64,000 bases of DNA. Origin: Raillietiella orientalis (Eukaryota). The stretch covers positions 2,604,001 through 2,668,000 of the forward strand of contig JAYWIR010000027.1 of NCBI GenBank assembly GCA_036172245.1, written 5' to 3'. Shown one piece after another: positions 759-64,000 of this stretch. The notes under the pieces were generated by a model. That model ran no database searches, was not told the DNA's origin, and saw only the letters and a program-made list of their open reading frames with translations. The translations under genes were made by a program, and so were the position numbers. Within the stretch, counting starts at the first letter, position 1. Each line of letters starts with the position of its first letter.

Positions 759-809
759 GACCCGAACACGCCGGGGCGTTCCTGAAAATGTGAAATAACC
801 TCATAACTT
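759..809 (-). mobile_element. Remnant 3' terminus (stem-loop) of a Tx1-like family A copy
   Basis: The minus strand reads GAACGCCCCGGCGTGTTCGGGTCG, a variant of the family terminal hairpin. It lies 60 nt from the hairpin at 819-836. Confidence 0.55.
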
Positions 810-817
810 GTGGTTGG

Positions 818-1441
818 TCACCAGGATCCGCCGGGGCATTTATTATAAAAAAAATCATTATAAAAGTCGCTGTCCACATTGCAGATTCGTGGTAGAACAT
901 TTGGTTCTACCACACGCGAAGGACTTGCCAAAAGCCGGTACGTAGACCGGTGAGGTCCGTTCCATTGCGAAAGGTGAGGGAAAACTACAAAAAAAAAAAA
1001 GAGAAAAAATAAGGAGAGGGGAAGTTTCCTAGGGAAGGAAGGGGAGGAGAGAGAAAGGATCACTGTTCACCTAAGGACGTCCTCTGCATCCTGTTCAGGA
1101 TGCTGACAAGTGCTGTTTTGGCATTGTCCAGGTGGGTCCATCTCGTCGTGCAGTGGATGACGTCCCTGCCATTTCGCCCTCTCCTTGTTGCGTTCCAGCA
1201 TGCCACGATTCCACGGACACAGAACTGCTAGGGACGGCTGGAAGAAGATCGGTACGCCGGGGGAAGAGTCGGAAAATGTCCTTTGGTTCGCCCGCCAGTT
1301 TTCCTAGGATCATTGAGAGACGGATCCAAAGAGGTCGAAGGGCAAAACAGTCTACGAATAAGTGCGGGAAGGTGTCTTTGTGGCCGCCCCTTTCACAACC
1401 CCTTTTACCTGCCTCCGATCAAGCAGGAGACCCCCATTACA
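818..1441 (-). mobile_element. 5'-truncated Tx1/L1-like non-LTR retrotransposon (family A), ORF2 C-terminus + 3' UTR
   Basis: Minus-strand translation gives PHLFVDCFALRPLWIRL...ALVSILNRMQRTSLGEQ*, then a pyrimidine tract, AATAAA and the terminal hairpin at 819-836. Candidate TSD GTGGTTGG at 810-817 and 1442-1449. Confidence 0.8.
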
Positions 1442-1825: not shown

Positions 1826-1829
1826 ACAG

Positions 1830-2068: not shown

Positions 2069-2074
2069 CTCTGA

Positions 2075-3195
2075 TCCCTTTTGGGAGTTTGGGGTTGACG
2101 AAGCATTGGAGAGGGATCCCTCCGGACGGGGGGAATCGCACCTCTCACCCTGGTTGTCTCCGAAGGGGAACCCGAAGGGAATCTCCTTCCTCATTCTCTC
2201 CGGAGGGACACCCCCTGGGAGAGGGGTGGTCTCTCCATTTCAACTTCTTCGAAGTGAACCCGGAAAGGATCCGCTTGTAGGAATTTCTTCTCCGGAGGGA
2301 ATCCGCAAGGGAACAGCTACTGTTCACTCCTCTGACGAGAACCCCGAAGGGATGCTTCCGAAACTCAGAAGGGGCGCTGCAGCTTCCCGCAGGGAATCGC
2401 TCTCTCTTGCTTCCTTGTGCACTCTGTGAAGAGGCGACGACTTGGAGGGACCCCCGAAACAGGGGGGTCCGCTCCTTTGAACAACTGGAGAGGTGCCCGT
2501 GAGGGATCCTGCTCCATCTTGAAACCAGAGGTGGTCCCCTGGTGACAGGGGTCCGCTCTCCGTTGCACGACCGGAAGGGGAACTCCCCACTCCTTTATTC
2601 CTGGAAGGACCCGAAGGTCGACTCCCATCGTTCCGGCCTTCATCGGGGTTTCCTGCTTAAACCACCACCGGTGCCATGCCCGAATTTCTCGGCCAACCAG
2701 TGCCGTTGCAGGAGAAACTCGGAACCCAACGACGCAATGGCGTCAGTTTCTGCCGAAGTATTTGAACCCGCGACGCATGGTGCCACGTGCGGAAGCCTTA
2801 ACCACAAAGCCTCCTACGCGAGCCCTCAATTTTTTGACAGTATTTTTTTTTATTTTATTTTTTTGTGTGTTCGTTTGCCTCCCCTTCCTATGTGCTGCCG
2901 AGGTGACCCCGCTGGTCTGCGTGCCAGATCCCGGCAGGTTCCTTCTCGTAGTTATAAGTAACGAGACAGAATCACACATCGAGCCACAGACGTTCATTTT
3001 TTATAGATACACGCCCCGGCGTGACCGGGTGTCAACCAGTGCCGCACTCGATTATGGACCAACCAGCGCCATCCTGCGGGGGGGAAATCGAAATTCACGA
3101 CGACGCACCCCTCGTTCTCGGCATCCACCCTTCCCCGGGCGGAATTCGAACCCACGACCCTCGGTGCCGCGCGCGGAGAGACTGCAGAGCTGCGA
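2075..3195 (-). mobile_element. Long tRNA-derived SINE, interrupted by a 327-bp insertion (2706-3032)
   Basis: B-box GGGTTCGAATTC on the minus strand at 3142-3153. After removing 2706-3044 the sequence is collinear with the uninterrupted copy at 14230-14895. Confidence 0.7.
2706..3032 (+). mobile_element. Chimeric insertion: inverted tRNA-like head (2706-2825) + family A 3' UTR and terminal hairpin
   Basis: Direct repeat CAACCAGTGCCG at 2694-2705 and 3033-3044. Minus-strand B-box GGGTTCAAATAC at 2758-2769. 2840-3031 matches the reverse complement of 15085-15270. Confidence 0.75.
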
Positions 3196-5479
3196 GGCCG
3201 CCAATGCCATCTCTCCCCTCTCCATCGGTGGCTGAGGTGGGCCCATCGAGAAGCCCAAGAAGCTGCTGCGAGCGGGTACGCGGGGGAGCCCCTCTGCATG
3301 AGCGAAAAGGCAGAGGAAGGGAGAGGAGTGCTGGTGCTGGTGTTTGCGGTGGCGGCGGCGTGAGGTACCAAGGTGATCTCGTCCCCTGTTTGCTCTCCGC
3401 CAAGTCTCCTAGTCGTCGCGCCATCCACGTCTTCCGGGCCTTCAAGACTGAGACCGGACGGGTGTCCTGGAAAAAGTCGGGATGAGCCGGCCTCGTTCCC
3501 AGGGCAACAGCATGCGCAAGAGGGTGTTCTCCTCTCCTCCCCCGCCCCTCTCCCTCCGCCGACCCGACCCGGCAGGGCTCGCGCTGCTCTTCAAGAATAG
3601 GGAGTGCGAGCGAAAATGAAAGAGGATGCCACTTTAAAGAGAGAGAAAGCGTGACCGGGCAGTCAAGGAAGAAGTCGTCGGCCACGCGCCTCGTGGTCGT
3701 CCAGGAGCCTGCAGCGGCGGACTGCTCCTTCGGCTCGATCCCGCGGTGGAGCGGAAAGGAGATAGGGGGGGAGTGAGTAGGGGGAAGACGCGCGCGCGCG
3801 CGAAGAGGGCGCTTGGCCGAACGCGCAGGCTTGGTGTCCGCGATCCGGGGCCGGGACGGCGAACGGGAACGCTCCCCGACCTCTCCCTCGGCGTCGCAGC
3901 AGTCCCCGTGCGTTTCCTCCCTCCCGAAATCGAAACGAGAGGTCTCCTTCCTCCGGGATCGAAACTCGCCCTCTGTCCGCAGCTGGACCCCGAAACCCCA
4001 TCTCATTCCCCGAGATCCCCTCCTGCCTCCGCCGGCCGGGTCATCAGATCGATGCGATTTCATACCCACTGCTTCATTCATTTCCATCGGCATCTCGCGA
4101 GGAGGGGAGAGGCGGGATCACGGGAACATCCTCTGGAAGGGAGGATGCCAGCTCGAGATTACCGGCCAATCTCCGTGTCAGAAAAATTAGCTCCGTCGCG
4201 CGCGAACAAGAACTCCGCAGTCACCTCTGCGGAGGCGCGCCGCGGGGAAGCACTATGGGTACCGGCGGGTGCTGAGCAGCGCCATCTCGCCTCGAGGAAC
4301 GTACTCAAGGAGGAAGAATAGAAAAGGGGAGGGCCGGAAATCTCTCGTTGCGTCACGAGGCGGGAAGAGCTGCTCCTGTTCTGGAAGGAGGTTGCCTTCC
4401 CCGCCGAGAGGTTCCAGGCGGCGCTTCCGTCAGCCCCGTCGCAGCCGCCGTTATGGCGCTCTCCGCATTGGATGCGCCCTCTTGGAAAGACTGGGGAAGA
4501 AGCGCGGAGAAAGAGGGAGGCACAGGGAGGGAGAGGTGCACAGCAGCGGCGATCCTCTGGTTCTCGAGGGAGGCCTGGGGCGAGCGTCCCCGTGGATTCC
4601 TCCGCGTCGAGAAGTCTCCAAACGTAGTTTGGTTCCCGGGAGCGAGTCGCGTGTTTGCGCCGACCGGGACACTTCGGCGGGCTCGCGGGCGGCCCACCCT
4701 GCACGCCTTCCTGAAGGCGAGTCCGTCCCTCACTCCCCTTCCCCGACGCCTCCCGGTCGCGCCAGGGCGTTCGTTCTCACTTGCAGCCATCAGAAAGGGG
4801 TGAGGGAGGTACAGCAATGCAGATTGGGTCGTAAGTCAGAGAGTGTCCCGACGGAGAAGAGGAGGAAGGTCGCCCAAGAGACAAGCCTCAGGGCAGCAGG
4901 TGCCAGCAGCATGCAGCTCGTGTGTGGCAGCAACGACGCTGTCGTTAGCAGCAGGTGTGGGAGCAGGTACGCACAGAGGTGGCTGGCGTTATGCGACAAT
5001 CCCGATGGCGCTGCCGCAGGGAGGCAAGGGACATAGCTCGCAGCATCTCGTGTGTCAAGCAGGCGGGTCGGAGTGGCCCCATTCTCCGGAACCTGCTTCC
5101 TATCATGTAGCAGGTTCTGGAGAGTGGGACTCCCCTCGTCTGCTGGACCAAAATGCCTAATCTTGGCCCAGCAGGCATGTGCATGCTGGGATGAGGAGCG
5201 CTCGTGAGGACGGCCCGAGAGGGCAGAGACGCGAATCTCCTCGGTGCCATTCGACACCTGTAGCTCTGTGCTGGTTCCCAGCCGCAGACCTCTTCTTCGT
5301 CTCTTCCGACTCTTTCGGGAAGCAAGGGGGCGTGCGATGGCCCCACCGTCGAGAACAATCGGTCCCAGTGCCAAGGAGAGCGGCGCAGGAAGAAACCCAT
5401 TAGCAGGCGAGGAGGCAGCTGCAGCAGAGACTCCGGGTCCCTCCAAAGGCCGAAGGACTCCAGATGAGCTGGCTTGAAG

Positions 5480-6559: not shown

Positions 6560-7557
6560 GTTTTCTCCGGGGACTCAGGATCGACTGAACCACTCTTAAA
6601 GGTCGTTCGCCTGGACGCTCCCTCCCCATCAGGCCTTCAGGGTCCCACAGGTGCATTCGCTAGCACCACCAAGCTGTGTGCCCGCTGCAGCCCCAGGCGA
6701 GAGCTCGCGGCCAAACTCTTCCGGCGCGCGCGTCTCCCGGCCGCAGTGCACCCGAAGGCAGGAGCGGCCCTGTTCCGGCGGCGTCAGGAGGCGGAGGGCT
6801 CGACTCTTCGAACGCCACCCACTTTCAGGGACAGCTGCTTCAGCAGGTGAGCCGCTGGCGGCACCGCTTAGCCGAGTCCGACTTCCGTCCATGGCCACCG
6901 TTGTGCTGTCCATAGCAACCGACGCCTTCGCGTAGAAAGCCCAGTAACCCGACGTTCAGTCCACTCCAAAGCACCGGTTCTGCTCACCAAAGCAAACCCT
7001 CTGGGCGCCCATAGATCCGACAGTCCGAGCTTTGGCGTCCAAGCGAGCCGGACTTCTCATCCATTTCAAGTTCGAGGACTAGTCAAAGTCACCTCGTCCC
7101 CAGTCAGTCGCTTTACCTAACGTGATTCCCCTCTTCCCTTCCGCCCCAACGAGTGCCAGCTGCCCTGAGGGAAACTTCGGAGGTAACCGGTCACGAGGTG
7201 GTTCGATCCGTCTTTTGCCCAGACTCCCACGACGAATTCGAACGTTAGTATCGCCACGGGGCCTCCACCAGAGTCGTCTCTGGAGTCATCCTGGCCAGGC
7301 ACGGGTCCAGCATCATTCGATGCGTTCCGACGGACAATCGCGCGTTTACGGGATGTCACGGGAGTGCTCCTGCGTACGCTCGAGAGGGAGCCGCAAACGG
7401 CCGCGAGAAACCTCCTGCGGGCGGATCTTCCCAGATTGGCTCGCGCGCTATCGGACACCCGCACCTCTCGTGTCCGCCCGCGGACAGCGACGCGCGTTGA
7501 CTCCTCCCTAGCGCGAAGGAGGAAGCCACGCGCTCGCGTGGGAAGACGGACGAGCGA
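6560..7557 (-). pseudogene. Decayed 28S (LSU) rRNA fragment, roughly from the 3' side of D2 to D7
   Basis: Collinear conserved LSU blocks on the minus strand: CCAGAG.ACGA.CTCTGGTGGAGG, CCTCCGAAGTTTCCCTCAGG.CAGCTGG, AACTTGAAATGGATGAGAAG, GGACGGAAGTCGGACTCGGCTAAGCGG, CCCTGAAAGTGGGTGGCGTT, CAGTCGATCCTGAG. Many substitutions and indels fall in normally invariant positions. Confidence 0.85.
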
Positions 7558-9039
7558 TGCCACCCGGATACGCCGGGACGTTTATTCAATCTCTCCATAT
7601 AGTCATGACAATACGTGGTACAAGGCCCCTCTAACGGCCAATAACACCGGACCTGCCGGAACACCGGGACGCAGCACGGCGTGACTCTCCTCGGCAGTAG
7701 AAGGGGATGGGGGAAAAAACAAAAAGAAAAAATAAAACAATAAGGCAGAAAAAAGAATTTAGAGGGTGGGGAAGGGATCACTGACCACTGGGAGGAGGGT
7801 CCATGCTTTGCAGGATGCCCTCGAGGTCCTTCTTTAGTCCACCCAGCTGGGGCCATACGGTAACTCTCTGCAGGAAGCGAACAGCATACGGGATGACGGC
7901 CCTCTCGTTGGCATCTTCATCTTCGGCTTCACTCCAGGCTGCCACAAACCCATGGATGCAGCAAAGTGCTTCCAGGGCTGCGGCTGGCTCCAGGGAGTCC
8001 CGCACGAAGAGAAGGCGGTAGACGTCTCTGTGGTTGTCGCCAACCGGTATCCCAAGGGTCGTTCCGAAACGTTTCCACAGGCGCCGGAGGGCAGGGCAGT
8101 CAACTATCAGGTGGGGGAGGGACTCCTGCTCCCCGCACCTGGCACACTCAGAGTTTACTCTCCCCCTCATCCAATGAAAGCGGCGGGCGTTGCAGGGTAG
8201 ACCTCAATGCAACAACAGGAGCGCCGACTCTTGCTACTTGAGGGGGAGGATCCTTAAACCATTCAATACCGGGGGCCACTTCAGGTCATCCGTCGGGATG
8301 CCGAACAGCTCGCCTTATCGCAAAAGTCCACGCGGAAGGACACTCGGGGTCGTGGCATCTGACAGCTCTCCCATGGTCCAACCGCTCATCTTCTCTCTGC
8401 CCGCGATCCGACAGGACTCTTGCCACTTCTGTGTCCGTCCGCTGAAGAGGGCCCTCCGTAGGAAGGGCAGCGCCGTAGCTAAAGGGGTAGTCTCCGCCCA
8501 TGTGCTCCTTGTGGTACACCCCAGAATGGTCCTCAGGGCGTAGGGCCCGAATCGCAGGCAGTTCCAGCTGTCATTTCTCTGGGCATTTAACTTCGCTCAT
8601 GTTCCAACAGGTTCCTCCATCCATGCGGAGTAGTTGGCGGGGCTGCATACCATCCAGCCGTTCTCCTTGGCAAGTGTGGCCATGCGTCCAAGGAGAAGGC
8701 CTCATCTTCTGATCTTCCGGCCGGGGCACAGAAGATGAGACGCGAGTCCTTGCGTCCTGGATACACAACTAGCTAGGAGGCGGGCCGGAACGCACCAAGG
8801 GGTGCTCCACAACTTCGCTGCGATAGCCATGGTGTGCCATCGCAGCTGAATTTTCAAGCGCTCCAGCGTCAGGAGGCCAAGACCGCCGTCCTGACGCGGA
8901 GCGCATATGTCCTGCAGCTTCACTTGGGGCCTCTCGTTGCCCCACAGGGCGATACGAAGAAGGTTCTTGGTTCGCTTCTTCAACTGGGAAGGACGGGGTA
9001 AACAAAAAGCAGGGGGCTGAGGGCTTGTCCGTCCTCGTT
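7558..9039 (-). mobile_element. 5'-truncated family A copy inserted into the 28S-like sequence
   Basis: ALWGNERPQVKLQDICAPRQDGGLGL…, CARCGEQESLPHLIVDC…ILQSMDPPPSGQ*. AATAAA + hairpin at 7561-7577. 14-bp TSD AGACGGACGAGCGA at 7544-7557 and 9040-9053. Confidence 0.9.
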
Positions 9040-9139
9040 AGACGGACGAGCGAAGAAGAGCGACGCGCCAGCGACCCTGCCCGGCCTCAGAAGGCGGGAA
9101 ACGAACGGGGAGCGCGCGCAAACGCGCTTCCACCCTTCC

Positions 9140-10680
9140 TTCAGGCACTCGCCGGTGCCTCCGGGTAGATTTCCCCCCGCGCGTCGGAAGAGGATCCTGG
9201 AATCCGCAGCTGCTTTTCGGCACGCTGGACGCGCGTCGAACCAGCCTCAGGGGAAGGTCTCTTCGGGGAGGAACTGACCTCCATCGCTGGATCGAAACGT
9301 ACGCGCGTGAGAGCGCGCACGGTGGCGCGACGGTGAGGGAGCAGCGCGGGAGAGGCTCGCAAACCGTGCCGGGTCTGCGCCTCTCTCAGGAAGAAAAGTG
9401 TCTCCAAATGTCCCTGGGGCCATCCACCTGAATTTGAAGGGTCATCGCCGGACGATCCCAGAATGGGCCGGAAGGTGGCAAAGCCTAGAGGCAGATGTGG
9501 GAAGGTTTCTTCTTTCCCGCGTCCACACTCCCCCGGGTCCAGTGGCGGAGACGCGCTTTGCATTGGGGGATCCCCAGACGCAAGGCCTGCAGCGCCAGCA
9601 CCTGCCACTATAGGGGAGGGTAGAGCTGTCCGTGAAGACAACGGGCAGCGCCAGATCTCCTGGAGGGACCTCGAGCAGCCGGACCCAACGTATCAGGCCT
9701 TCTAGTGGGACGCCGGCAGTTTTGGCGTTCCTCCAACTCCCGTGCCGTCCACTCACCGAGAAGTTTCCTTGCCTCTGAAACATCGCAGCAGAGTGCCTCC
9801 CAGCTTCCCGGATTGGGAGCGTATCCTTCTCTTCTCTTGGGAGGGGGCCAGCACCGGGGCAAGCGATGCCAGCAGGGTCTTCCGTGTGTTTCCCACGGCC
9901 TCCTGCAGCGACCAACGAGCGTAGACGCCGCGTTGCAGATGGAAGAACTTCGCTTCTCTCGAGCCGTGGGTCCTCCCCCTCGCACCAGCGGACTCCTGCA
10001 GCCAAGTGGTGCTGTTCGCGGACCAAACAGAGCCTCCAGGCGTTCTCTCTCACCAAGGCAATCGTCTGTCAGAGTTGATGCCCGTACCGGGCCACGCCCT
10101 TCGGTGTCTGACAGACGAGGACCGAAGTCCGTCGCTTCCGTCCGCTCGCTTGCTCGGCGAGGAGACGCTCCAAGGCACCGTCCGCAACTTCGCCGCGAGA
10201 GCGAATCTTCTTCGGAATGGACGCTCCGTGAGCCCGTCCGGAGTCTGAAGGCCCTGCCCACTGTCTTCACAGGCGGAACGCATAGGTCTTTCAAGCGGCT
10301 TCCCTGTGTCCCGGAGGGCTCTTCGGAAAGGGTTCTCAGTCCCTCTTTCGATGGTGACGAGGGGACGGAGGGGGAAAGAGAGGAGGGGCAAACAAGAAAC
10401 AGGGGGCGGAGGAGAGGAGTCACGACAGCGTTGCCAGCCGCAGCCCGTTCCGGCAAGTGAAGCTTGCCCTTCGAGTGCCATCTCCACTTTCTGGAAACGG
10501 CAGGACCCGGCTTCTGCGGGACGGAAGTCCCCCAACGAAACGCCAAGGTACTTCAAGTACCAGCCCATGGGATCCTCCAGGCGGATTCAGTCCAATAGTC
10601 CAACCCATGCCCCTCCCACTGCCACTACCGACGACTTTGCCCTGTTCGCCTCCAGACCCGTCCCACTCTTACCAGGAAGA
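9140..10680 (-). mobile_element. Decayed family A ORF2 fragment (end of RT to zinc finger)
   Basis: GTGLEANRAKSSVVAVG…YLKYLGVS matches the end of the RT at 60030-60155. GECGRGKEETFPHL zinc-finger remnant near 9500. Confidence 0.75.
9524..10570. repeat. About 1.05-kb near-identical copy of 61825-62871
   Basis: Base-by-base match at offset 52301, with only a handful of substitutions over the first ~900 bp. Nearly identical ORF translations appear in the ORF track. Confidence 0.95.
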
Positions 10681-10689: not shown

Positions 10690-11207
10690 GGATCTCCCGC
10701 GACAATGGGAACCCCCGGCGGCAATTCCAAGGACGCAACTCCTCCTCCTACGCGATGCCCTTCGTCTGGCCTCCGTCCAGCAGGGAGCCTCGCTAGCGGC
10801 TCCCTGCTGCCTGCACGGGATTTTAGCAGCGGTCTGGAGCCACGCAAGAGGAGCACCGAGCAACAGCACATCCACTTTGCTGGACGAGAGGATGGCAATG
10901 AGATGGCCCCACCTGAAGGACTGCATGCAGCAAGAGCTTGCCAGTATCCTCGGAAGAATGCAGAGGACCTCCCTCAGGGGGAAGTGACCCCTTCCCGCAC
11001 CCTCACCCCCACCCATGCAAGGTTTATTTGTTTCTTTTTTTTCTTTTCGTTTGCTCCCTTTCCCCTACTGCTGTGGCGGACCTCACCGGTCGAGGAACCA
11101 GTCACCCGGCAGGCTCCGCTGAAATGGACGTGGTTGGACCTATGGTCCAACCAGTCTTTGTAAGTGTTTATTTTTATATTAAATAAACGTTCCGGAGCAC
11201 CGGGTGA
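10690..11207 (+). mobile_element. Family A 3' end
   Basis: LLLLRDAL…QQELASILGRMQRTSLRGK*, T-rich tract, then AATAAACGTTCCGGAGCACCGGGTG (hairpin 11190-11206). Confidence 0.8.
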
Positions 11208-11226
11208 TAATCCTTTCTCCTACTTA

Positions 11227-11700: not shown

Positions 11701-12740
11701 ATGAGGACAGATGGATTTTCTGCCGCCCCACCAACCGTAGTTGCTCCGGCATGACCGGGTGTCAACCAACCGCAGTTGCCCGGAAACAGGAAGCGATTCA
11801 GGCGCGGGCGAAAAGAAACGGAGCCATCGCGATGCCGGCTATCCACAAACTTCGCTCGCCGCTTGCTGCAGGAAATCTACGGCTTGCCCAAAGAGAGGTT
11901 GGAGCGGGAACACCCCTGGGCATGGAGACCCCACTTGGGGCATGCCCGACACGACGCAGCAAAGTGGGCATGGAGACAGCCTTGCGAGATGGGTAATATC
12001 CTGCGAGATAGCGAGAAAAGCAGCTGGGATTCTGGACCACGCGTCAACTGATACGCTTTTGCCCCCAGCCGCCCTACCCAGAGGGATCCTTCGCAGGACG
12101 GAGCTTCTTGAGATTTCCCTGGGGGCATCCGAAATTCTCCCAGTGTTCGTGGACAGCTCCACGCTTTCCCTGAAGTGACGCGACTCTGCATTCGCAGATC
12201 CCATGCAACGCACGAGCCCACTCCTGCACGAGGGAGTGGGTGGGTGGGTGGGGCCCCGGACTGGGGCTGGGTGCAGCGAATGGGAAACCTTCCCGTACCT
12301 GTTGCTGGATTGCGTCGCCCTCCCGAGTATCCGAGAACGCCCCGCTGCGCCTCCCCCCTCCCCCTTCCCGCTCCTGACAGAAGACGGCAGAAAGGTCGCG
12401 CGACTCGATGTCGCCCCCAGCCTCCCTGCTGTGAGATTGTGGCAGCGAGAAGCCACGCCGAAAGAGGCTGGTCACACGGTGACGTCACCGCAACCGTCTG
12501 CTCGTTCGTGAGGGAGGTGGCACGATGGCCACTTCTCCCTGCCAGCAGCAAGAGGAATTTGCCTGCATCCTCCAGAGGATGCTGAGGGAGCCAGGAAGGA
12601 ATCCTCGATCCCTTCCCTCCTCAGCACATTCTAAGACCCCCCCCCCCACCTTTCCTGTGCGCACCTCATCGAGCGGGCTGCTCACGAGAAGCAGCGCCTC
12701 GGGGGCATCTCCCTTCATGGTGGGAGGCCGCGAAACCGCT
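11701..12740 (+). mobile_element. Decayed family A ORF2 C-terminal region + start of 3' UTR
   Basis: GILRRTELLEISLG, CSEWETFPYLLLDCVALPS and QQEEFACILQRML align with the ORF at 56287-57174. Confidence 0.75.
11745..11764 (+). mobile_element. 20-nt insertion consisting only of the family A terminal hairpin
   Basis: TCCGGCATGACCGGGTGTCA is flanked by ACCAACCG(T/C)AGTTGC at 11730-11744 and 11765-11779. Confidence 0.8.
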
Positions 12741-13289: not shown

Positions 13290-13545
13290 TGTTGACCCCA
13301 CCCCACTTTTCCTGTGCGGACCTCAACGGACGGGCTGCTTACGAGAGGCAGCGCCTCCGGATATCTCCCTTCATAGTAGAGGGCCGCGAAACCTCTACGA
13401 AGGAAGACACCTGCTTTCTTTTCTACATACAATAAGACGGTTTTTCGTTAATTATTGTACAAAAACTGCCACGTTATATTTACGAAAAAAAAATACACGG
13501 TTCATATATAAATAAATAAACGTGACCTCAGCTGATCGGGTGAAA
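13290..13545 (+). mobile_element. Family A 3' UTR and degenerate terminus
   Basis: 13297-13395 resembles 12640-12738. The segment ends in AATAAACGTGACCTCAGCTGATCGGGTGAAAA. Confidence 0.65.
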
Positions 13546-13659
13546 ATATCCCTACTTAACAACTCGTAGAAGCCCTCGAGCGCTGACACTGGGGTGGACA
13601 CGGGGAGCAGCAGCCGGTTGTCGGCCCCCAGAATCCGAGCCACTCCCTTCCCGAGACCC

Positions 13660-13828
13660 AATCGCATTTCCCCTTCCTTTGCCCTTCTTCCTCTTCATGG
13701 GACTCTCTGATTTCTTTGGCTGACTCCACCCCCCTTGCTAAAGAGGAAGAAAACTGCATATATATCTATATATATATATTCTTTTTCTTTTTTGGAGTGT
13801 ACATCGACTTCCCGGAGCATCCGGGCAC
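13660..13828 (+). mobile_element. Probable further family A 3' remnant
   Basis: Pyrimidine tract, AT-rich stretch and hairpin CCCGG-AGCAT-CCGGG at 13811-13825. Confidence 0.45.
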
Positions 13829-14229
13829 GAAAAGGCAGGATGCCATCCCTTCTCGGACCCTCTGTGCATTTGTTTCCATGATTTTCGTTCGTCCCTCCTT
13901 CTCACTTTGCTACCGAGGCAGCGGACCCCGGCGGTCTGCATGCCGGCACTCCTTGGCACACCCAGGTGGCTGCGGACGCGGTGGGAATCCCGCCGCCCGA
14001 CTCTTGTGTGTCTCTCATCCCCCCCCGCGCAACCGGGTGGTGGGTGCGTGCAATCCCGCTGTCTTTGCACCGGAGAAAGTCGAGAGGCGCAGCTGCCGCC
14101 ATCACAGAATCAAAGGATCGCAGAAAGCGAAACCGGAAATCCGGAGGCGATTCCTACTTTCGCGATGTCCTCATCGTTGAATCCGTCCTCATGTCCCCCA
14201 TCCCCAGCCCAGAACCGTTGCCTCCTTGG

Positions 14230-14895
14230 GAAAGGCTTATGAAGCTCTTTAACACCGCCTTCTATGAATCCCGGATGGACTCTGGAGGAAGGAATCCGTT
14301 CTTCTTGCTCATGGGAAGGAACTCCGAATGGGATCCTCCAACCTGGTTGTCTCCGAAGGGAACCCCGAAAGGAACCTCTTCCTTATTCTCTCCAGAGAAA
14401 CCCCCTGGATGAGGTCACTCCAAAGTGGATCCTGTCGAAGGGATCCGCTCCCTGTTTCCTCTCCCTCTGAAGGGACGCTTCATCATTCCTCCCAAGGGTC
14501 ACCGCTCCCCAAAGGGAGCAGCGCACTTCTTGACCCTCTAGAGGGGTGTATCAATCCACCAGCCCTATGGTACCCCTTGGAAGATCCCCCTCACTGTGGT
14601 AAAAGGAAAGGGGGACAGCTGTCTTTTCGCAACTGGAGGGGAACAGTCCCGAAGGGTTCTTTGGTGTCCTGGAAGGACCCCGGAGGGTCTAATTCCCAAT
14701 CCCAGTCACTCAACGGAGGCATCTAGCTCCCACCAGTGCTGCACCCGGAGCCAACCAAGGCCAACCAGCGTCATCTTGCGGGAGCGACTCGAATCCCTCG
14801 GCGTACCCCTCGTACTCGGCATCGGTTCTTCCCCGGGAGGGATTCGAACCCACGACGCCTAGTGTCACGTGCGAAGAGACCGCAGCTGAGCGGCC
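14230..14895 (-). mobile_element. Long tRNA-derived SINE (uninterrupted copy)
   Basis: B-box GGGTTCGAATCC on the minus strand at 14840-14851. The body is homologous to 2075-3195 and 29270-29520. Confidence 0.7.
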
Positions 14896-15080
14896 TTCAA
14901 AAGGAGTAAGGAAAGAAGAAGAAAAACGAAAAGTGAAGGCGACAAAGAAGATTTAATAACGGGCTAACCCTCAGCAAACGCACGGGCCCATTCCACGTAA
15001 TGAGTCCTACGCTACAGAACAGAACCACTCCTTTCACCTCCGAATGAGACGTCGTCTGCTTCGTGGAGGGACCATCTTGG

Positions 15081-21747: not shown

Positions 21748-21748
21748 C

Positions 21749-29269: not shown

Positions 29270-29520
29270 TGCTGCTGTGCGACTGCCCTCCTTGAACGCG
29301 GAACCGAGAGTCGCGAGTTCGAATCCCTCCCGGGGAAGGGTCGTCGACGCCGAGAACGGGGTGTGTGCGTCGTGGGTTTCGGTTTCCCCCCATGCAGGAC
29401 GACGAGGTTGACCCACGGGCCTGGGGTGAGGCACCGGCGAAATCCGGATGCCCCCGTTGACTGGTCCTTCCAGGAATCAAGGAGTCCTTAGGGGTTGTTC
29501 CCTTCCCCCACCTGCACCCT
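29270..29520 (+). mobile_element. tRNA-derived SINE copy (same family as 14230-14895)
   Basis: B-box GAGTTCGAATCC at 29315-29326, followed by CCCGGGGAAG…GCCGAGAACG and GATGCCCCCGTTGA…GGTCCTTCCAGGA, as in the other copies. Confidence 0.7.
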
Positions 29521-55469: not shown

Positions 55470-57374
55470 TTTTCCCCTATTCCCACAATGGGTGGGGTGA
55501 ATTAATTTATCCCTTTTCCAATCACGCTACATCGGCTCATTCATTTACTACTCACACCACAAGTGTCACTGCTCAGTCCGTTTCTACATTTAAGGAACAT
55601 TGGTTGATGTCGTTGCCCGGGCGTCATCCTTAATCCTCCTCAGCATATAGCGGTACGTCCAGGCCGGTACTCGTCCACAGTTCCTGATGCCAATCTCCTT
55701 TTGGATTAGCCCTTTCAGGATTTCCATCGGAAGAGCGGCTATCCTGGCATTTTTCATCTTCCACCACCGCACGAGTATGGCGATGATAAAAAGAGCAATG
55801 GTCGTCCTTACCATGGGATTGTAGCAGGGAACATCCCGGCAAGTATTTCCATCACTGAACTGGTCGTAAGTCCTATGATCCTTTTCAAGATCAGCCAGTC
55901 GCGGAGTAATGTGGGACAGGTTAAGACATGTAGTCTCGTGTCGATGTCTCCACATGCCTTGCTGTCTTCGTCTTCGCGTCTTCCCGTGATGTACTTCATG
56001 CTGGATCCACTCAGGATTCCCCCGTAGTAGAACATTTTTTTCACCCGGATATGCCGGGGCATTTATTTGGAAATAAAAATACAATAATTTTCGCGTGGCG
56101 ATCCCATAGGCTCACCACACCAAGACAGTTTGCTTCTTGCCAGTACGGAACCGGCGAGGTCCTCCCGACGCGCTGGGGTGGGGATACAAAGAACAAAAGA
56201 AACAAAAAGTTCAAAAGTGTGGAGGGCAGAAATGTTTTGGGGATGGGAGTGCAAGGGAGGGATCACAGTGCGCGCGGATCGGTCCTCTAGATCCTTTTCA
56301 GGATCCGAACAAGCTGCGTCCTTGCAGCACCCAAATGGCGCCATCTGCAGATGTTTCGCACAAAAAGGCGAGTCCAGTGTAAGGCATTCCTGCGGGTCTG
56401 ACGTCTTCTTCTCGTCGCGTTCCAAGCCTCCACGATGCCTTGAATGCAACAGAGAACTGCTACACAGGCGGGCGGGGACAAGGCGTCGCGAGAGAAGAGG
56501 CGCCTGAAAATGTCCTTAGGGGTGCCTCCGCGAATGTCAAGAATCGCCGCAAGACGATCCCAGAGAGGGCGTAGCGTTATGCAGTCAACAAGAAGGTGGG
56601 GGAATGTCTCTTTTTCCCCGCACCGATCGCACTGGGGGTCCGCAGCCCCCCGCGTGCAGTGATACAGGCGTGCTTTGAAAGGTAAACCCCAATGTACCAC
56701 AAGCAACGCCACCTCCTGACAATTCAGGGGTAGGGATCCACTGTTCCAGGACGCTGGGGGCCACTTCATCTCCTCCGGAGAAAGTCCGAGTAGCTCGCCC
56801 CAGCGTAGAATGCCGTTGGGCGGGACACTCGGCGTCGCAGCATCCGCTAGCTGCCGAGATGTCCACGCCTTTATCACTTGTGGCCTGCCGTCAATGGTGC
56901 AGGACACATTCCATTTCCCCTGCTCGCTGCTGTACCTGGCGTTCTCAAGGAAGGCCAGCACTGGGGCAAGGAGGGTAATCAGGGCCCACAGAAGCTCATC
57001 GTGGGACTGCACGATCTCCTGCAGCGTCCAGCGGGAGTGCCTCTTTAGGCAAGTGTTTTTTGTGCCCGCCGGAACGTGGATCTTTTCCCACGTGGAGACT
57101 GACTCGTGCAGCCATGCACAGTAGTTCCCGGGGAGGCAGGAGATCCAGGCGTTCTTCCGAACCACAACGAACATTAGAACATTAGGAGGTTGTCCTGGGT
57201 GTCTGGAGGTAGGTCACTCCTCCAGAGTATCGTGCCGATCGCTAACAGGTTAATCCTATCGCTCCCGTAACGATGGGCGGCTTCTTGGAGGGCACTGGTG
57301 TCTTGGTCTTCTTCTTTAATTAGACTTCGGAGGTTCTTCTTGTTAATCCTGGACCAAGCAAAGTCATTGTGGTT
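55470..57374 (-). mobile_element. 5'-truncated non-LTR retrotransposon of a second family (B), split by a family A insertion
   Basis: 14-bp TSD CAAACTCCCTTAAA at 55456-55469 and 57375-57388. Removing the insert rejoins LWRSDLPPDTQDNLLMF-YYGGILSG…ACGDIDTRLHVLTCP, a zf-RVT-type region. Confidence 0.8.
56037..57174 (-). mobile_element. Relatively young 5'-truncated family A copy
   Basis: 295-aa open frame with WGLPFKARL…CDRCGEKETFPHLLVDC. AATAAA + hairpin at 56042-56059. TSD TAGAACATT at 56028-56036 and 57175-57183. Confidence 0.9.
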
Positions 57375-57630: not shown

Positions 57631-57893
57631 GAACTATTTAGCTCAACTTGCTCAACTTTCATCTCAACAGCCTATTTATAGCGGTAAGATGCGTAGGCCT
57701 TCTGCCAGGAATACCCTTAGCATTAACATTAACACTACTGAATCTTAGACCTTGTCTACTGGAACATGAATGCTGGCACTTGTCCACGGAAATATTAATA
57801 TTGGCAATTGTCCCGTGGAATATTGATATTGACACTTGTCTATTGAAAACCTTGCGATTACTTAAAAACTGTTGCCCAGTCGGAGTCGCGGCG

Positions 57894-58700
57894 CTGCCAC
57901 CCGGTCACGCCGGGGCGTTCATTTAAAACTCTTCTATACGTTAGTGGTTTTTCACCCAGATATGCCGGGGCATTTATCATTGAAATTTTATCAATAAAAT
58001 TTTATAATAAAGTCTTAAGTTTGTTTTTTGTTTTTCAGGCAGAACACATGGTTCTGCCTGTCATGGAACACTTGCTGTTACCGGCCCTCAGGCCGGTGAG
58101 GTCCTCACCGCTGGCGAAGGGGATGGGAAAACCACAAAAAAAGCAAAGAAAAAAAAACACGAGGGGAGGGCACTGTTTTTCGGGGAGGGGAGGACATGGA
58201 AGGGATCACAGTTCACTGCGAGCGGTCCTCTGCATCCTGGTTTGGATGCGAACAAGTGCCGGTCTTAAAGTTCGTAACCGGCGCCATCCGGAAGCCTTCT
58301 CCATGGAGATGGCTGCCCAGTGAATGACATTCCAGCTTCTGTGGCCTCTCCTAGACGCAATCCATTTGTCCAGGATTTCGCGTATGCAGCGGAGAACTGC
58401 TACACACGCGGCTGCTGGCAAAGCGTCCCGCATCAGAAGGCGACGGAATCATATGACCTTTGGATCGCTCAACGGAAAGTTCAGAGTCAACGATAGTCGA
58501 TTCCGCATGGAATGGAGGGCGACGCAGTCGATGATCAGGTGAGGGAAGGTTTCCCTTTCCCCGGACTTTGCAAAATTGGCATCTACACTCCTACAGGTCT
58601 AGTGGGAGAGGCGTGCTCTGCAAAGGAGCCCCTAATGCAGCACAAGCAGCGCCGTCTCTTGCCAATCCAAGGGAAGGGTGCCATTGTCCTATAGAGCTGA
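57894..58700 (-). mobile_element. Family A 3' part with two tandem terminal hairpins
   Basis: RETFPHLIIDCVAL…MRDALPAAACVAVLRCI…RMQRTARSEL*. Hairpins at 57898-57915 and 57953-57970. Confidence 0.85.
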
Positions 58701-58719: not shown

Positions 58720-60730
58720 CCGCCCTTCAGGGGGTTTTTTCTGCCTCCGATGAGGCAGGACATTTCCCACGATGCCTCTTCCTGGCTGTCCCTAGCGTTC
58801 TTTAGGTAGGGCAGCACGGAGGCAAGGGGGGTAAACGAACTCGGGGAGGATGGGGGGAGGGAGATTCGGGGAGGAGGTTTGTAACGAAAGAGCATATATC
58901 CACTCTCGACGTTACGCGAGGACCCCCAACGTCCATCGCCTGGCCGAATATCGAGCCGAGACCGAGCGCCAAACCTGGCAATCAGGGTCGGCCAGTTTGC
59001 TGGACGACCTGGGCCTGGAACGCTCGGCCCCTCCCACGATAAGGCACTTTGTGCGGAGTTTTGATTCCTCCCTTTACGCCAGAGCATCTCCCGAGCGGGA
59101 TGCCTCACGGTTCTTGCTTCCGGATGGAGCCCCGGTAATAGGGAGGAGGAGATGGAAAGCCTCGACGAGCCTTTTACGACCGGCGAAATTCTCGCCGGTA
59201 TTAGGAGGCTCAAGAGGCGTAAGGAGCCAGGGGAGGACGGCCTGCCCGCGGAGTTCTTCCAGTGCTTCGGGGCAGAGCTGGCGCCCCTGGTGCTGCAGTT
59301 GACGCGGCTGATCCGAGACGAAGGCGATGTTCCCGCCTCGTTTCGGTCAGCCAGGGTGAGGCTCCTTCCGAAAGGAGGAGACCTCAGGAAATTAAGCAAC
59401 TGGTGTCCGATCACGATTGTGAACACGGACGCCAAGTTGCTAGCCGGGCTGTGGGCTACCCGTCTGGGGCAGGTGGCCAATTCCATAATTAGCCCGGAGC
59501 AGACTTACGCTGTTCCCGGGCGAAGTATAGAGGCCAACCTCTTCTTCGCAAGCACATGGTTCGAAGTGCAAAGAGAAGAGAGAATGAAAGGGCGAATTAT
59601 CGGCAACCCTGCTTTGGGGGTGCCGGCTAGGCAGGGAAGGGACACCCGGGTGGGGAAGGGAGCCCTAGCGATCGCAGTCGATCTCCATAAGGCGTTCGAC
59701 TGCGTGGACCAGGAGCTTCTACTGGAGCTCCTGGATCGCATGGGCATTCCACCCTCCTTACTAACCTACCTGCGCTCCTGCTGGTGCAGCGCTATAATAA
59801 AGGTTTCTTTTAGTTGTCAACAGGTGTACGGCGTGCCGCTGCGGCGGGGCATACGGCAGGGCGATAGCCTGTGTCCCCTGCTCTTTAGCACCTACTTCGA
59901 GTTGGTGCTAAGAGCGTACAGGGCGTGCCCCGGTAAGCCCGCCGTATCGGCGTACGCTGATGATATTCTGCTCTTGTTGCCCATGTCCGCCCCGGTACCA
60001 CTTACGAGGATTTCTTCGATCTGCTAAGCCGTGGGACTGGACTGCGGGTGAACAAGGCAAAGTCGTCGGTGGTGGCGGTTGGTGTCACGTGGGTTGGACT
60101 GCCTGACTGGATCCGCTTGGGGATCCCCACGGCCAGGTACCTGGAGTACCTGGGAGGGTGAGCCTGAACTGTGCCAGGTGCTGGGAAAGGGAATCCTTTC
60201 CCCACCTGTGAGTGGACTGCGTTGTCCTCCGACCCCTTTGGGAACGCTTCTCGACGACCCTCCAGATCCTGGTTGGCAACCCCCCTGGGACGTTCTACGG
60301 CTTCTCTTTGTGCGGAACTCCCTGTAACCAGCCTCAGTCCTGGCAGCACTTTGCTGCATCCGAGGGATTGTGGCTGCGTGGAGCGACGCCATCAGAGGAA
60401 ACAGCGAAAGGGACGCCATCGAATTCGCAGTTCGCTTCCTGAGGATTGCGACCAGATGGTCCCACCTGGGAAGCATGCAGATGGACCTCAAGGACATTCT
60501 GCAAAGGATGGACCCTTCCTTTAGCAGAAAGCGATTCCTTCCCTTCCCTCCAAAGCCTTTTTCTTATCTGTTTTTTGTTTTCTTTCTTTTTTTTCCCCCC
60601 ATCTCCCTCCGCTGCCGAGGTGAGTCCCGTCGGTCTGTGTACCGCCGACCCGGCAGGTCCGATGTTGTGTTGGCCGTACCACGAATGTATAGACATTTTA
60701 TAATAAACTCCCCGGCGTGACCGGTTGGCA
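58720..60730 (+). mobile_element. Family A reverse transcriptase domain (Tx1/L1 clade, disabled) joined directly to zinc finger + 3' terminus
   Basis: ORF 59152-60027 contains KEPGEDGLPAEFF, LLPKGGDLRKLSNW.PI, EQTYAVPGRSI, DLHKAFDCV, GIRQGDSLCPLLF and SAYADD. After a frameshift come GLRVNKAKS…YLG, an abrupt jump at about 60157 to CARCWERESFPHL, and AATAAA + hairpin at 60702-60727. Confidence 0.9.
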
Positions 60731-61197
60731 GCCCCGAATCCAGCGGGTAGGCGGTGCAGAGGGAACTTCTCGCAGAACTCGCGAACCGAGTGCTTGAAAC
60801 GATCCCAGTCCGCAAGATTCCGGAGGGTGACACCTCTCAGGTATTGACGGGGATGTTCCGCCGCACCTGGGAGGTTCGTCCATTCCCTCGGTAGACGCCA
60901 CGCCTTGGATGGGGGTCGCTTTTCGCGTGGGCAAACCTCGAATATCAACTGGGAATGGTCGGACAGCGTCGAAGTTTCCCTCGTCTGCCGACCCGTGGGC
61001 ACAGGTCGCGGTCGATACTGTCCACCATTTCCGGTCTCGGAGTCGCGGCGGAGGAAACTCATTAATCCGACAATAGCGCGAATCAAACGAGTCGAGAATG
61101 CTCTGTTGCCACGGGCAATGTTAAAGGGTTTCTGCTGCCCGTCTTTGGCGCCACAAGACAAGGGTGCCGTCATTCCCGTGCAACACGTGTTTAGCAG
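60731..61197 (-). mobile_element. Fragment of the APE endonuclease C-terminus/linker of a Tx1-like ORF2
   Basis: LSDHSQLIF…PPSKAWRL…WDRFKHSVREFC matches the SDH…W(K/R)L…W..K..R.FC pattern of L1/Tx1 ORF2. Confidence 0.65.
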
Positions 61198-64000
61198 GTT
61201 TTTCACCCGGACCTAACCAGACACTCATTACAAAAATAATAAATTTGCATTTCTGTGGTACGGCTCTTGGTGCTATCACGTCCTCAAAGAAAACAACAAC
61301 AACAACGAGAACAAAAAACAGATGGAACTTTCCTGGATGCCGTCACGTGGACCGGCGAAGTCCACTTCGTCAGCGAGGAGGAAGGGATCGACCTAAACAA
61401 TAGAGATAAACGAACAAAAAGAGAACGGGAGAGTTTTTTTTCGGGAGGGAAGGGAAGGAGATCGGGGAAGGAATCACTGTTGGTTGTCCGGCGCCCTCAA
61501 CATCCGATCCAGGATGCTGGCAAGTTCGGTGTGCGTTTGTCGCCGGCCACCTTGCGGAGATCCTTATGAGTATTTTTGTCCAGTGGATGGCGTCCCTTGC
61601 ATTCTGTCCTCTCCCTGCAGCGTTCCAGACTGCCACCATCCCACGCAGGCAGCAGAGGGCTGACAGGCACTGAGATGGCGACAGCGCATCCCGCACGAAG
61701 AAGCGTTTCGCGATGCCCCTGGGGTCGCTCAACCGGAGCCGAAGAGCCCTCGTAGACGTTTCCGTAGGGACCAGAGGGCAGGTGCGTTCGCCGCACGTGC
61801 CCTACAGTCCCTATGAGGCGCTCCCACACTCCCCCGGGTCCAGTGGCGGAGACGCGCTTTGTATTGGGGGATCCCCAGACGCAAGGCCTGCAGCGCCAGC
61901 ACCTGCCACTACAGGGGAGGGTAGAGCTGTCCGTGAAGACAACGGGCAGCGCCAGATCTCCTGGAGGGACCTCGAGCAGCCGGACCCAACGTATCAGGCC
62001 TTCTAGTGGGACGCCGGCAGTTTTGGCGTTCCTCCAACTCCCGTGCCGTCCACTCACCGAGAAGTTTCCTTGCCTCTGAAACATCGCAGCAGAGTGCCTC
62101 CCAGCTTCCCGGATTGGGAGCGTATCCTTCTCTTCTCTTGAGAGGGGGCCAGCACCGGGGCAAGCGATGCCAGCAGGGTCTTCCGTGTGTTTCCCACGGC
62201 CTCCTGCAGCGACCAACGAGCGTAGACGCCGCGTTGCAGATGGAAGAACTTCGCTTCTCTCGAGCCGTGGGTCCTCCCCCTCGCACCAGCGGACTCCTGC
62301 AGCCAAGTGGTGCTGTTCGCGGACCAAACAGAGCCTCCAGGCGTTCTCTCTCACCAAGGCAATCGTCTGTCAGAGTTGATGCCCGTACCGGGCCACGCCC
62401 TTCGGTGTCTGACAGACGAGGACCGAAGTCCGTCGCTTCCGTCCGCTCGCTTGCTCGGCGAGGAGACGCTCCAAGGCACCGTCCGCAACTTCGCCGCGAG
62501 AGCGAATCTTCTTCGGAATGGACGCTCCGTGAGCCCGTCCGGAGTCTGAAGGCCCTGCCCACTGTCTTCACAGGCGGAACGCATAGGTCTTTCAAGCGGC
62601 TTCCCTGTGTCCCGGAGGGCTCTTCGGAAAGGGTTCTCAGTCCCTCTTTCGATGGTGACGAGGGGACGGAGGGGGAAAGAGAGGAGGGGCAAACAAGAAA
62701 CAGGGGGCGGAGGAGAGGAGTCACTACCGCGTTGCCAACCGCAGCCCGTTCCGGCAAGTGAAGCTTGCCCTTCGAGTGCCATCTCCAGTTTCTGGAGACG
62801 GCAGGACCCGGCTTCTGCAGGACGGAAGTCCCTCAACGGAACGTCAAGGTACTTCAATTACCTGCCCGTGGGGGTCGTTCTTCCACTCTAGTCAGCTCCA
62901 CCAACACTCGCCGCTCGACTGAGGAGCCCGGTGGCGTTCTTGTCGCCGTGCTCGGCAGCAGTGTGGGCGGCTCCCCGATCAGGAACGCCTGGTTCCTCGT
63001 TGCCCTCGGCAATGGGAAGCCCTGCAGCCAGCAGGCGCGCTCTTCTAGGCGCGGCGCGACGGAGGCGAGCCGCATTCTCGCTCCGACACTCCGAGCGTCC
63101 GCCCTCTCGCCAGGAATGAACCCTTCTGCTGTCGCCGCCTCCACGTTTGCACAAGTGGAACGTCGTGGTGAAGACGCGCTGACCACGGTGGCGCCGCCTG
63201 TGGGTGCGCGCGCGCGCATGAGGTGAACACGCTTTCGCTACTTCGGCTGTGTGTAGGCGCTCCGGAGCGCCAGCCGTCGGAGGTTTTCCGCTGTCCTTTC
63301 CCCCCGGGGGGAGGAGCTTGGCGCGATGCCGAAGAACTGCCGCCCGAGGGGGCGGAAGCAGTGCTCAGGTCGTGACTCACCAGGGGGCTGCGTCCGGGGA
63401 TCGCGGCCAAACGTCCTGGGCGGCAGTTGGCGAGGGCCTGCGGGCAGTCCGTGGTGCGCGCCATACTAGAGGGGTGTAGAGGAGTCCTGTCCCCCCCGCT
63501 ACCGCATCTGTCCTCCCCGCGCTGGTGCCTAATCGCTCCCTGGGTCACGAGAGTCCCGAAGCGGTCCCCGTGGAGGTTCCTGCTAGGGGGCACTCGAAAC
63601 GCGCACTGCTCTCCACCGCGCTGCGCGATCGACTGTGAACTCAGGGATTCGGCCGCGCTCCCAGACGGGAGGCACGCGGGCGATCCCCATCCCTTTGCTG
63701 GCGGTGAAACGGGGCAACTCGCCGCAGAGGAATGAGGAACCCCGGAGACAGATGGCACGACCTCTGCAGCAGGACCTTTCCATCCTGGACACCCCGTGTC
63801 CTCGCTATCCACTTCCGACGTATCCCTTTGCGCGCGCGATGGTCGCGAAGCGAAAGGAGAAAGCAGAGAGGACCGATCTCGGAAAACCGTGGAGTCGACC
63901 CGTCGCTAGGCAATGGTAGCGAGCGGTCCGCTCCGCATCGCGCGTTCCCCTCTGAGTGGATGGCCTAACCTGGCGTTCCAGAAGAAGAGATCCCTTCCTC
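61198..64000 (-). mobile_element. Decayed family A copy, probably extending to or beyond the window end
   Basis: Terminus GTCTGGTTAGGTCCGGGTGAAAAA (61204-61222). RFFVRDALSPSQCLSALCCLRG, KYLDVPL, and RT remnants EGFIPGER and PPGGKGQRKTSDGWR near 63100-63320. Confidence 0.75.
61825..62871. repeat. About 1.05-kb near-identical copy of 9524-10570
   Basis: See the 9524-10570 entry. Confidence 0.95.

Follow-up and report, generated by a model that had tools for sequence, protein, structure and literature searches.

A conserved hairpin module at the 3′ ends of diverged retrotransposons, probably of the L1 superclade, in a contig of Raillietiella orientalis

Long interspersed nuclear elements (LINEs) of the L1 clade that are of the stringent type and carry a conserved 3′ stem-loop have been described from maize and sorghum and from Chlamydomonas (Ohshima 2012, PMC3472496), and are also covered in the sections used here of a 2013 review (PMC3747384). 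In the monocot LINE1-1_ZM lineage the last 45 nucleotides (nt) are conserved, with a hairpin that displays compensatory changes and with partner short interspersed nuclear elements (SINEs), while the 3′ end of Chlamydomonas L1-1_CR is common to SINEX-3_CR; LINE1-1_ZM and L1-1_CR both end in poly(A), and among 15 green-algal L1 families there were 8 with other terminal repeats and 5 with no terminal repeat (PMC3472496). For eel UnaL2, zebrafish ZfL2 and silkworm SART1, the parts of the sources drawn on here (PMC3472496, PMC3747384, PMC4176376) state that a 3′ stem-loop is needed for template recognition and that reverse transcription starts precisely. A stem-loop near the 3′ end of the 3′ untranslated region (UTR) has been proposed for human L1 as well, according to the portion consulted of Grechishnikova and Poptsova (2016, PMC5135761). 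How L1-type reverse transcriptases (RTs) choose their template, by poly(A) alone or by poly(A) plus structure, is debated. Here we describe a stretch of 64,000 nt from Raillietiella orientalis (contig JAYWIR010000027.1, positions 2,604,001 to 2,668,000; hereafter ‘the window’) in which several families of L1-related retrotransposons end in a small hairpin followed by a short tail.

The hairpin module and the elements that carry it

The module reads (AATAAA)-N2-3-CCCGG-loop-CCGGG-TG plus a short tail. The initial annotation of the window had listed about 15 copies, and the module was seen at all 15 of those positions, 13 of them clear and two divergent (13526+ and 61206−; copies are named here by the position and strand of their hairpin). 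A strict pattern, AATAAA-N2-3-YCYGG-N4-6-CCGGGTG, gave five matches in the window and none in 100 dinucleotide-preserving shuffles, which served as the control for pattern counts; CCGGGTG alone gave 22 matches, as compared with 12.0 ± 3.5 in the shuffles. A covariance model trained on 13 copies and run across the window with filters off (E ≤ 10) returned 18 matches. These included all 13 training copies, the two divergent copies (E of 6.1 for 13526+ and 8.4 for 61206−) and a copy that the annotation had missed, a decayed, family-B-like hairpin (CCTGG/CCGGG) at 4744-4780(−) (19.5 bits, E of 0.013), with which the window holds 16 copies. Two further matches, at 57057-57087(−) and 21011-21037(+), are probable noise. 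No Rfam family matched any of the hairpins at the gathering threshold, the single hit in the window being a 28S rRNA fragment (described below).

The spacing of the module is fixed (AATAAA, 2–3 nt, hairpin, TG-N-CA). Exact AATAAA is found in 8 of the 16 copies and, where it is present, a CA lies approximately 23 nt 3′ of it. In RNA the module would comprise a poly(A) signal, 2–3 nt, a G/C stem of 5 basepairs (bp), a loop of 4–6 nt, UG and a tail of 1–7 nt (GCA, UCA(A), ACAA or A5-7).

Grouping by nucleotide similarity and by tail placed the copies in family A (821, 34175, 56044 and 57955), family B (761, 4752, 7563, 57900 and 60711; tail TGGCA(G)), family C (3015, 11745 and 15087; tail TGTCAA) and family D (61206); three copies (11191, 13526 and 13811) were placed in no family. 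When the 1.5 kilobases (kb) 5′ of every hairpin were compared by tblastx, colinear similarity of ∼35–50% translated identity was found in the C-terminal region of ORF2 for seven copies (56044−, 57955−, 821−, 7563−, 60711+, 15087− and 61206−), at an equal distance from the hairpin in each, and weak similarity for an eighth (11191+). Every copy with enough upstream sequence stands 3′ of ORF2, in agreement with the original description of most copies as lying downstream of the ORF2 end or 3′ UTR. At least four diverged families (A–D) of L1-superclade elements have the module as their 3′ terminus; their assignment to that superclade is taken up in the last section.

The family A copy at 56028-57183(−) (element 56037-57174) comprises an ORF2 C-terminus, a stop codon at 56287-56289, a 3′ UTR of ∼230 nt with AATAAA, a hairpin at 56044-56058 and a tail of TG plus A7. 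The family B copy at 58997-60731(+), whose 5′ end lies between 58832 and 58997, contains the sole RT domain in the window (in ORF 59065-60024) and ends in AATAAA, a hairpin at 60711-60725 (CCCGG/CCGGT) and the tail TGGCAG. The family D copy at 61198-62875(−) includes an ORF2 piece (62255-62875) and a hairpin at 61206-61221 (TCTGG/CCGGG, loop TTAGGT) with two G-U pairs, followed by TG and A5. Family-D ORF2 sequence is present twice in the window, as two stretches of 1049 bp (9523-10571 and 61824-62872) that are 98.6% identical and similarly oriented, with 52 kb between them; the stretch at 9523-10571 is without a hairpin-bearing 3′ end, and the pair might have arisen by recent duplication or as two young insertions.

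The three copies placed in no family are all on the plus strand. At 11177-11212 a hairpin (11191-11204, TCCGG/CCGGG, 4-nt loop) follows AATAAA and is followed by the tail TGATAA. The divergent copy at 13510-13548 consists of AAATAAA, a broken stem (CCTCA/TCGGG), TG and AAAATA. The sequence at 13797-13833 (13811+) has a perfect stem, CCCGG-AGCAT-CCGGG, with neither AATAAA nor TG, and its membership is uncertain.

Insertion junctions, tails and paired hairpins

Target-site duplications (TSDs) of 12–15 bp that start 3–6 nt past the stem were found for five copies. The 5′-truncated family C copy at 2694-3044(+) (element 2706-3032, ∼330 bp; hairpin 3015-3029, tail TGT(CAA)) is flanked by the 12-bp sequence CAACCAGTGCCG at 2694-2705 and 3033-3044. 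A family B copy at 7544-9053(−) (element 7558-9039, 1.48 kb), which carries an ORF2 C-terminal piece at 8606-9019, AATAAA, a hairpin at 7563-7577 and the tail TGGCA, has the 14-bp TSD TCGCTCGTCCGTCT at 9040-9053 and 7544-7557. The smallest insertion, at 11730-11779(+), is 20 nt long (11745-11764) and amounts to the hairpin plus TGTCA; its 15-bp TSD (11730-11744 and 11765-11779) is identical at 14 of 15 positions. A family A copy of 139 bp at 34157-34319(−) (element 34169-34307; AATAAA, hairpin 34175-34189, tail TGACAA) has the 12-bp TSD ACGTCCTTAAGA. This last element was considered as a SINE and rejected as such, since it aligns over its entire length to the 821 and 57955 3′ UTRs and thus represents a truncated family-A 3′ UTR. 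The fifth case is the unit ending in hairpin 57900−, with the 14-bp repeat CGCCGCGACTCCGA at 57880-57893 and 61037-61050, 3.15 kb apart.

Two additional copies have TSDs of 9 bp, namely 56044− (AATGTTCTA) and the family C copy 15087− (CCAAGATGG; 15072-16088(−), element ∼15081-16079, with AATAAA, a hairpin at 15087-15101 (CCTGG/CCGGG) and the tail TGTCAA). Repeats of that length alone are frequent by chance, and these two were counted for their coincidence with homology breaks: homology of 56044− to family B ends exactly at 57174, the predicted end of the element, and homology of 15087− to other families begins 17 nt inside its predicted 5′ end. The annotation had reported seven copies with TSDs of 8–15 bp near the hairpin. 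In an automatic scan, a repeat score of at least 12 was reached at 2.9% of 2000 random positions and by 4 of the 16 copies; the TSD at 11745 was found by hand because that scan skips adjacent repeats by design. The TSD scan found none for 11191+, 61206−, 821− and 57955−, and for 60711+ the best candidate (14/17) conflicts with the limits of homology, so that none is convincing; for 761− there is a tentative 11-bp match at a distance of 4.3 kb. Copies are 5′-truncated, down to the bare hairpin of 20 nt.

These junctions bear on whether the motif might be host sequence that was already in place, serving as an insertion target or as a general signal at the 3′ ends of genes. That explanation has in its favor that many Tx1-clade elements are target-specific (Kojima 2015, PMC4494074, in the portion used here) and that some hairpins are close neighbors (821/761 and 57955/57900). 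However, the hairpin lies inside the TSDs in five to seven copies, and the TSD sequences show no common motif; a common insertion target, which is a Tx1 trait, was looked for among the five strong TSDs and no such motif was found. The 3015+ element interrupts a repeat (repeat R) of which uninterrupted paralogs at ∼14.6-14.9 kb and 29.3-29.5 kb align across both sides and contain no hairpin. The 20-nt insertion at 11745+ sits within the decayed ORF2 of another plus-strand element, with protein homology on both flanks (to residues 420-574 of the metagenome protein P0001, ending at 11744, and to residues 90-220 of P0163 at 11957-12340). The closely spaced hairpins were probably co-inherited, as described below, and copies with enough upstream sequence follow ORF2. 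Because of the TSDs, the uninterrupted R paralogs and the insertion inside ORF2, we conclude that the hairpin is not a host target, as the annotation had also implied: it lies within the transposed unit, inside the TSDs. A host origin of the motif is very improbable, and both the host-target and the host-terminator readings were rejected.

Repeat R itself is several hundred bp in length, is found at 2560-3230 (interrupted), ∼14625-14895 and 29297-29516, and includes a tRNA-like box B in reverse complement (GGTTCGAATCC); ARAGORN called no tRNA, repeat R included. The 28S rRNA fragment, at 6672-7331(−), matches Rfam LSU_rRNA_eukarya (model positions 673-1449 of 3401, 104 bits) and starts ∼210 nt downstream of the 3′ TSD (7544-7557) of the family B element at 7558-9039, on the other side of which there is no matching rRNA sequence.

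The longest run of A after the stem is seven, and all 16 copies have at most that number, which upholds the report of short tails in place of long poly(A). Poly(A) is not copied into these insertions. In families B and C the copies terminate in GCA(G) or TCA(A), with the TSD directly adjoining. All three family C copies show TGTCAACCA across the junction, and their TSDs open with CAACCA-, ACCAACC- or CCAAG-like sequence, which suggests that in this family the target may anneal to the RNA tail through CAACCA microhomology.

Two units, both on the minus strand, end in a pair of hairpins. At 753-849 an AATAAA precedes the inner hairpin (821-835, CCCGG/CCTGG, one mismatch), the terminal hairpin is at 761-775 (CCCGG/TCGGG), and an ORF2-like body extends upstream to at least ∼1.5 kb. 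At 57880-57983 the inner hairpin (57955-57969, CCCGG/CTGGG, one wobble) is followed by an A5 tail and a 33-nt spacer, and the terminal hairpin (57900-57914) by the tail TGGCAG. The layout is the same in both, consisting of a family-A hairpin, a short tail, AACCAC, a spacer of 33–38 nt, GAACGC and a family-B hairpin, and the upstream bodies of the two units are homologous. Since the junction is the same in both units, the paired hairpins were probably inherited together. The units appear to descend from a master element that read through into a second module, with the outer hairpin taking over as the working end, a role given to it on account of the 14-bp repeat that comes after it at 57900. 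The imperfection of both inner hairpins fits a relaxation of constraint once a hairpin had become internal (n = 2).

Stem conservation and a proposed start of reverse transcription

Among the 14 copies with a 5-nt loop, column identity is 0.85 in the stem, as compared with 0.51 in the loop, 0.53 in the 12 nt upstream and 0.39 in the 14 nt downstream. Identity between families is 0.72 for the stem plus TG and 0.63 for the AATAAA block, and falls to 0.53 both in the 60 nt upstream and in the flanks, where shuffled sequence gives 0.51–0.53; the 3′ UTRs of different families are no more alike than shuffled sequence. The statement that the stem is kept while loops and UTRs diverge is borne out by these values. 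Loops vary in sequence and in length (4–6 nt). Of the 80 stem pairs in the 16 copies 77 are standard, with arms that are exact inverted repeats in six copies and fully paired, with wobbles, in seven more.

The stem substitutions in the 16 copies comprise ten C>T, one G>A, two G>T and one G>C. In sense RNA a C>T change keeps a G-U pair, and a G>A change would break the pair; the changes are thus mostly compatible with G-U pairing, as had been claimed. Folding is weaker for the antisense than for the sense strand in the copies with wobble changes (57955−, 61206− and 15087−). That the module folds in RNA is suggested indirectly by the inverted repeat, by the freedom of the loop and by the strand-specific bias in substitution.

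We propose that an RNA polymerase II transcript of the element would be cleaved ∼20–25 nt past AAUAAA, just 3′ of the hairpin; that ORF2p would recognize the terminal hairpin, as stringent-type LINEs do; and that target-primed reverse transcription would start at, or a few nt from, the cleavage site. In family C, the tail (CAACCA) may help this start through its microhomology to the target. The initial annotation had likewise suggested a cut at a CA, binding of the hairpin by ORF2p and priming at the foot of the poly(A) tail. A conserved 3′-terminal module of at least four L1-superclade families, with a start of reverse transcription that is guided by the hairpin, is in our judgment moderately probable.

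A number of results weigh against this proposal. None of the five stem pairs shows a compensatory double change in a 13-row alignment (63 of 65 cells paired, with five one-sided wobble changes and two unpaired cells). Folding energies are undistinguished from those of shuffled sequences (z-scores of −2.4 to +0.8), and the excess of C>T over G>A (two-sided binomial p of 0.012) derives from a count that ignores shared descent among copies. A 14-bp match at the distance seen in the 57900− unit occurs at 0.85% of random positions, and 60732-61036, which lies inside the unit bounded by that repeat (57880/61037), has no similarity to ORF2. A partner SINE with the hairpin tail was not seen in the 64 kb, repeat R being without such a tail in the parts examined. 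Finally, neither an APE domain, nor ORF1, nor a full-length copy was found in the window (by Pfam with 137 stop-to-stop open reading frames (ORFs) of at least 150 amino acids, or by tblastn with seven relatives, which matched RT and C-terminal parts only); this last absence says little, because all copies are 5′-truncated.

The shuffle control for pairing is uninformative because the stem columns barely vary, and shuffles reach the observed pairing values; a sixth pair across a bulged U (12 of 13 rows paired, one as U-A) is likewise not distinguishable from shuffles. In the phrase ‘structure-guided’, with which the initial annotation had characterized the system, the inverted repeat and the wobble bias are what stood: because there is no true covariation, the term rests on these two features, and the check for covariation, which gave no double changes, did not bear it out.

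The nearly invariant letters of the stem, the lack of any pair changed on both sides and the weak thermodynamic z-scores would also be expected if the block (CCCGG...CCGGGUG) were read as primary sequence, or if families had exchanged the module by template switching or recombination, without structural selection. The signal could in that case be sequence-specific rather than structural. Against this stand the arms, which are exact inverted repeats in six of the 16 copies and, wobbles included, fully paired in seven others, a loop that varies freely in length and sequence, and substitutions that favor pairing in the sense RNA, with an antisense fold that is weaker where wobbles occur. We regard an explanation by primary sequence or exchange as quite unlikely.

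A different function for the hairpin is suggested by the fixed spacing of AATAAA, hairpin and CA (the latter ∼23 nt past the signal), by the conservation of the AATAAA block together with the stem, and by the double-hairpin units, which show that read-through past an inner site has occurred. A LINE cannot carry a downstream GU-rich element, and the structure might instead fix the cleavage point and limit read-through; the hairpin would then serve 3′-end formation or RNA stability and not recognition by RT, and the short tails would mark wherever priming happened to start. On its own, however, this does not explain why poly(A) is uncopied in 16 of 16 copies, nor the ending of families B and C in unique, non-A sequence at the TSD, which needs a precise start of reverse transcription. 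As a replacement for recognition by RT we consider it unlikely; the two functions of the hairpin are compatible and could coexist.

Placement of the elements and comparison with described systems

Pfam identified RVT_1 in the ORF at 59065-60024(+) (E of 6.8e-18) and zf-RVT in that at 56290-57213(−) (E of 7e-5; 23.8 bits, below the Pfam cut-off of 27.5). Translation of the latter contains a cysteine-rich CCHC region, C-X2-C-X7-H-X4-C, and a similar CCHC motif is found at 11957-12340(+). The nearest relative of the window RT is P0001, of 619 amino acids, at 67% identity. The remaining protein matches of the window RT do not exceed 34% identity and mostly combine Exo_endo_phos, RVT_1 and zf-RVT; fish proteins named TX1-like are among the better of them (30–34%). 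A search for relatives of nearly the same length gave eight matches, all at 32% identity or less and none closer than P0001. P0001 matches human L1 ORF2p with E values of 7e-40 to 5e-39, as compared with 1e-15 to 1e-17 for R2 proteins.

In a FastTree phylogeny of 115 RT rows (the window RT and 114 of its 120 matches, six with fewer than 200 aligned residues having been dropped), the window RT and P0001 share a long branch that lies outside the plant L1 group and also outside a 59-row fish clade (98*) containing a protein named TX1-149-kDa-like by NCBI. Among the named rows a tick protein is closest, with a weak support of 82, and the closest RT cluster in the ESM Atlas is mostly from Arthropoda. 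The RVT_1 and CCHC domains and the proximity of P0001 to human L1 support an assignment of the hairpin-bearing elements to the L1 superclade (L1/Tx1 group) of non-LTR retrotransposons. The ‘Tx1/L1-clade’ label of the annotation accordingly held for the superclade, and membership in Tx1 was not established by the tree.

Metagenome contigs were scanned in two ways. A scan by protein (P0001 and the window RT) yielded 211 pattern stretches, none of which was confirmed by tblastn. A scan by DNA pattern yielded 17 loci, none in an AT-rich UTR context and several representing one repeated GC-rich locus; we read these 17 as chance or bacterial hairpins. Loci L002, L006, L009, L012, L016 and L017 are that identical GC-rich locus, which fits the pattern and reads AATAAACGTCCCGGCCGAGCCGGGTG followed by a run of T, and L013 resembles it. 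The locus appears to be a terminator-like hairpin of bacteria, without relation to the LINE motif.

The window is GC-rich (0.40–0.66 G+C in 4-kb bins) and dense in transposon remains. Within it a block at ∼16000-26000 is low in G+C (0.40–0.47, as compared with 0.54–0.66 elsewhere), and an ORF in this block, at 20392-20991(−), gives a near-threshold match to Glyco_transf_61 (26.3 bits versus a cut-off of 27). Exons of a Skeletor-like gene are located at 47107-51590(+), with DM13 at 47246-48289 and DOMON at 51015-51590. The exon at 47246-48289(+) is 44–65% identical to Skeletor (DM13/DOMON) proteins of insects and crustaceans, and these matches suggest that the host is arthropod-like, with a genome unusually rich in GC.

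An arthropod-like animal lineage of the L1 superclade in which a hairpin between AAUAAA and the cleavage site would be recognized stringently, and poly(A) not copied, is possible on the present data, and we put it forward tentatively. If such a lineage exists, specific 3′-end recognition within the L1 clade extends beyond green plants. It would also support the proposal by Ohshima that the clade was ancestrally stringent, with stringency relaxed separately in the mammals and in the flowering plants. An L1-related lineage with a tiny terminal hairpin and an uncopied poly(A) would also offer a compact system for testing recognition and initiation. For annotation, the motif would provide a sharp marker of the 3′ boundary and would account for very short insertions of a hairpin alone, which might otherwise pass for unexplained palindromes.

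No animal L1 or Tx1 element with this hairpin was described in the literature searched, which comprised published articles and neither Repbase, Dfam nor the supplements of Ohshima 2012 on SINE and LINE tails. The novelty of a stringent, structure-guided L1-clade system was nevertheless overstated in the initial annotation, since plant and algal cases are in print (PMC3472496). Like those, the window elements combine an L1-clade RT with a putative 3′ hairpin and with best conservation in the last tens of nt, and specific 3′-end recognition has been inferred in a clade usually thought to depend on poly(A) (PMC3472496). In maize, however, it is the loop (UCU) and the 3′ flank (CGAG) that are invariant, and the letters of the stem change with compensation; in the window the stem is fixed and the loop free. 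The plant and algal elements also have poly(A) repeats and SINE partners; those of the window have no copied poly(A), no partner seen and an animal host.

The window elements resemble UnaL2 and ZfL2 (L2 clade) and SART1 (R1 clade) in having a stem-loop in the 3′ UTR near the end of the RNA, as far as the parts of these sources used here describe them (PMC3472496, PMC3747384, PMC4176376). According to the same parts, UnaL2 has short specific tails instead of long runs of A, and SART1 RNA is polyadenylated with a precise start. Unlike the window elements, all three belong to other RT clades, and UnaL2 ends in TGTAA repeats and has a critical loop; a hairpin between AAUAAA and the cleavage site is not described for UnaL2, ZfL2 or SART1 in those portions of the sources.

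Human L1, a LINE of the relaxed type, has the closest solved RT and shares the CCHC C-terminus, 5′ truncation, variable TSDs and, in the portion of PMC5135761 cited above, a proposed 3′ stem-loop. It differs in its long poly(A) and in priming at a T-rich nick, whereas the window copies carry 0–7 A and the TSDs of families B and C are not A-rich at their start. Elements of the Tx1 clade (Tx1L, Keno, Kibi, Koshi and Tx1-Mar), as presented in the part of Kojima 2015 (PMC4494074) used here, are likewise L1-related, of animals and equipped with a zf-RVT-type C-terminus. The members described there are mostly target-specific and associated with SINEU elements that have poly(A) tails; the window elements, by contrast, have differing targets, and their RT is not nested in the fish TX1-like clade. 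What sets the window elements apart from the published cases is the animal host, a stem that is fixed around a free loop, the inferred position of the hairpin between the poly(A) signal and the cleavage site, and the absence of copied poly(A).

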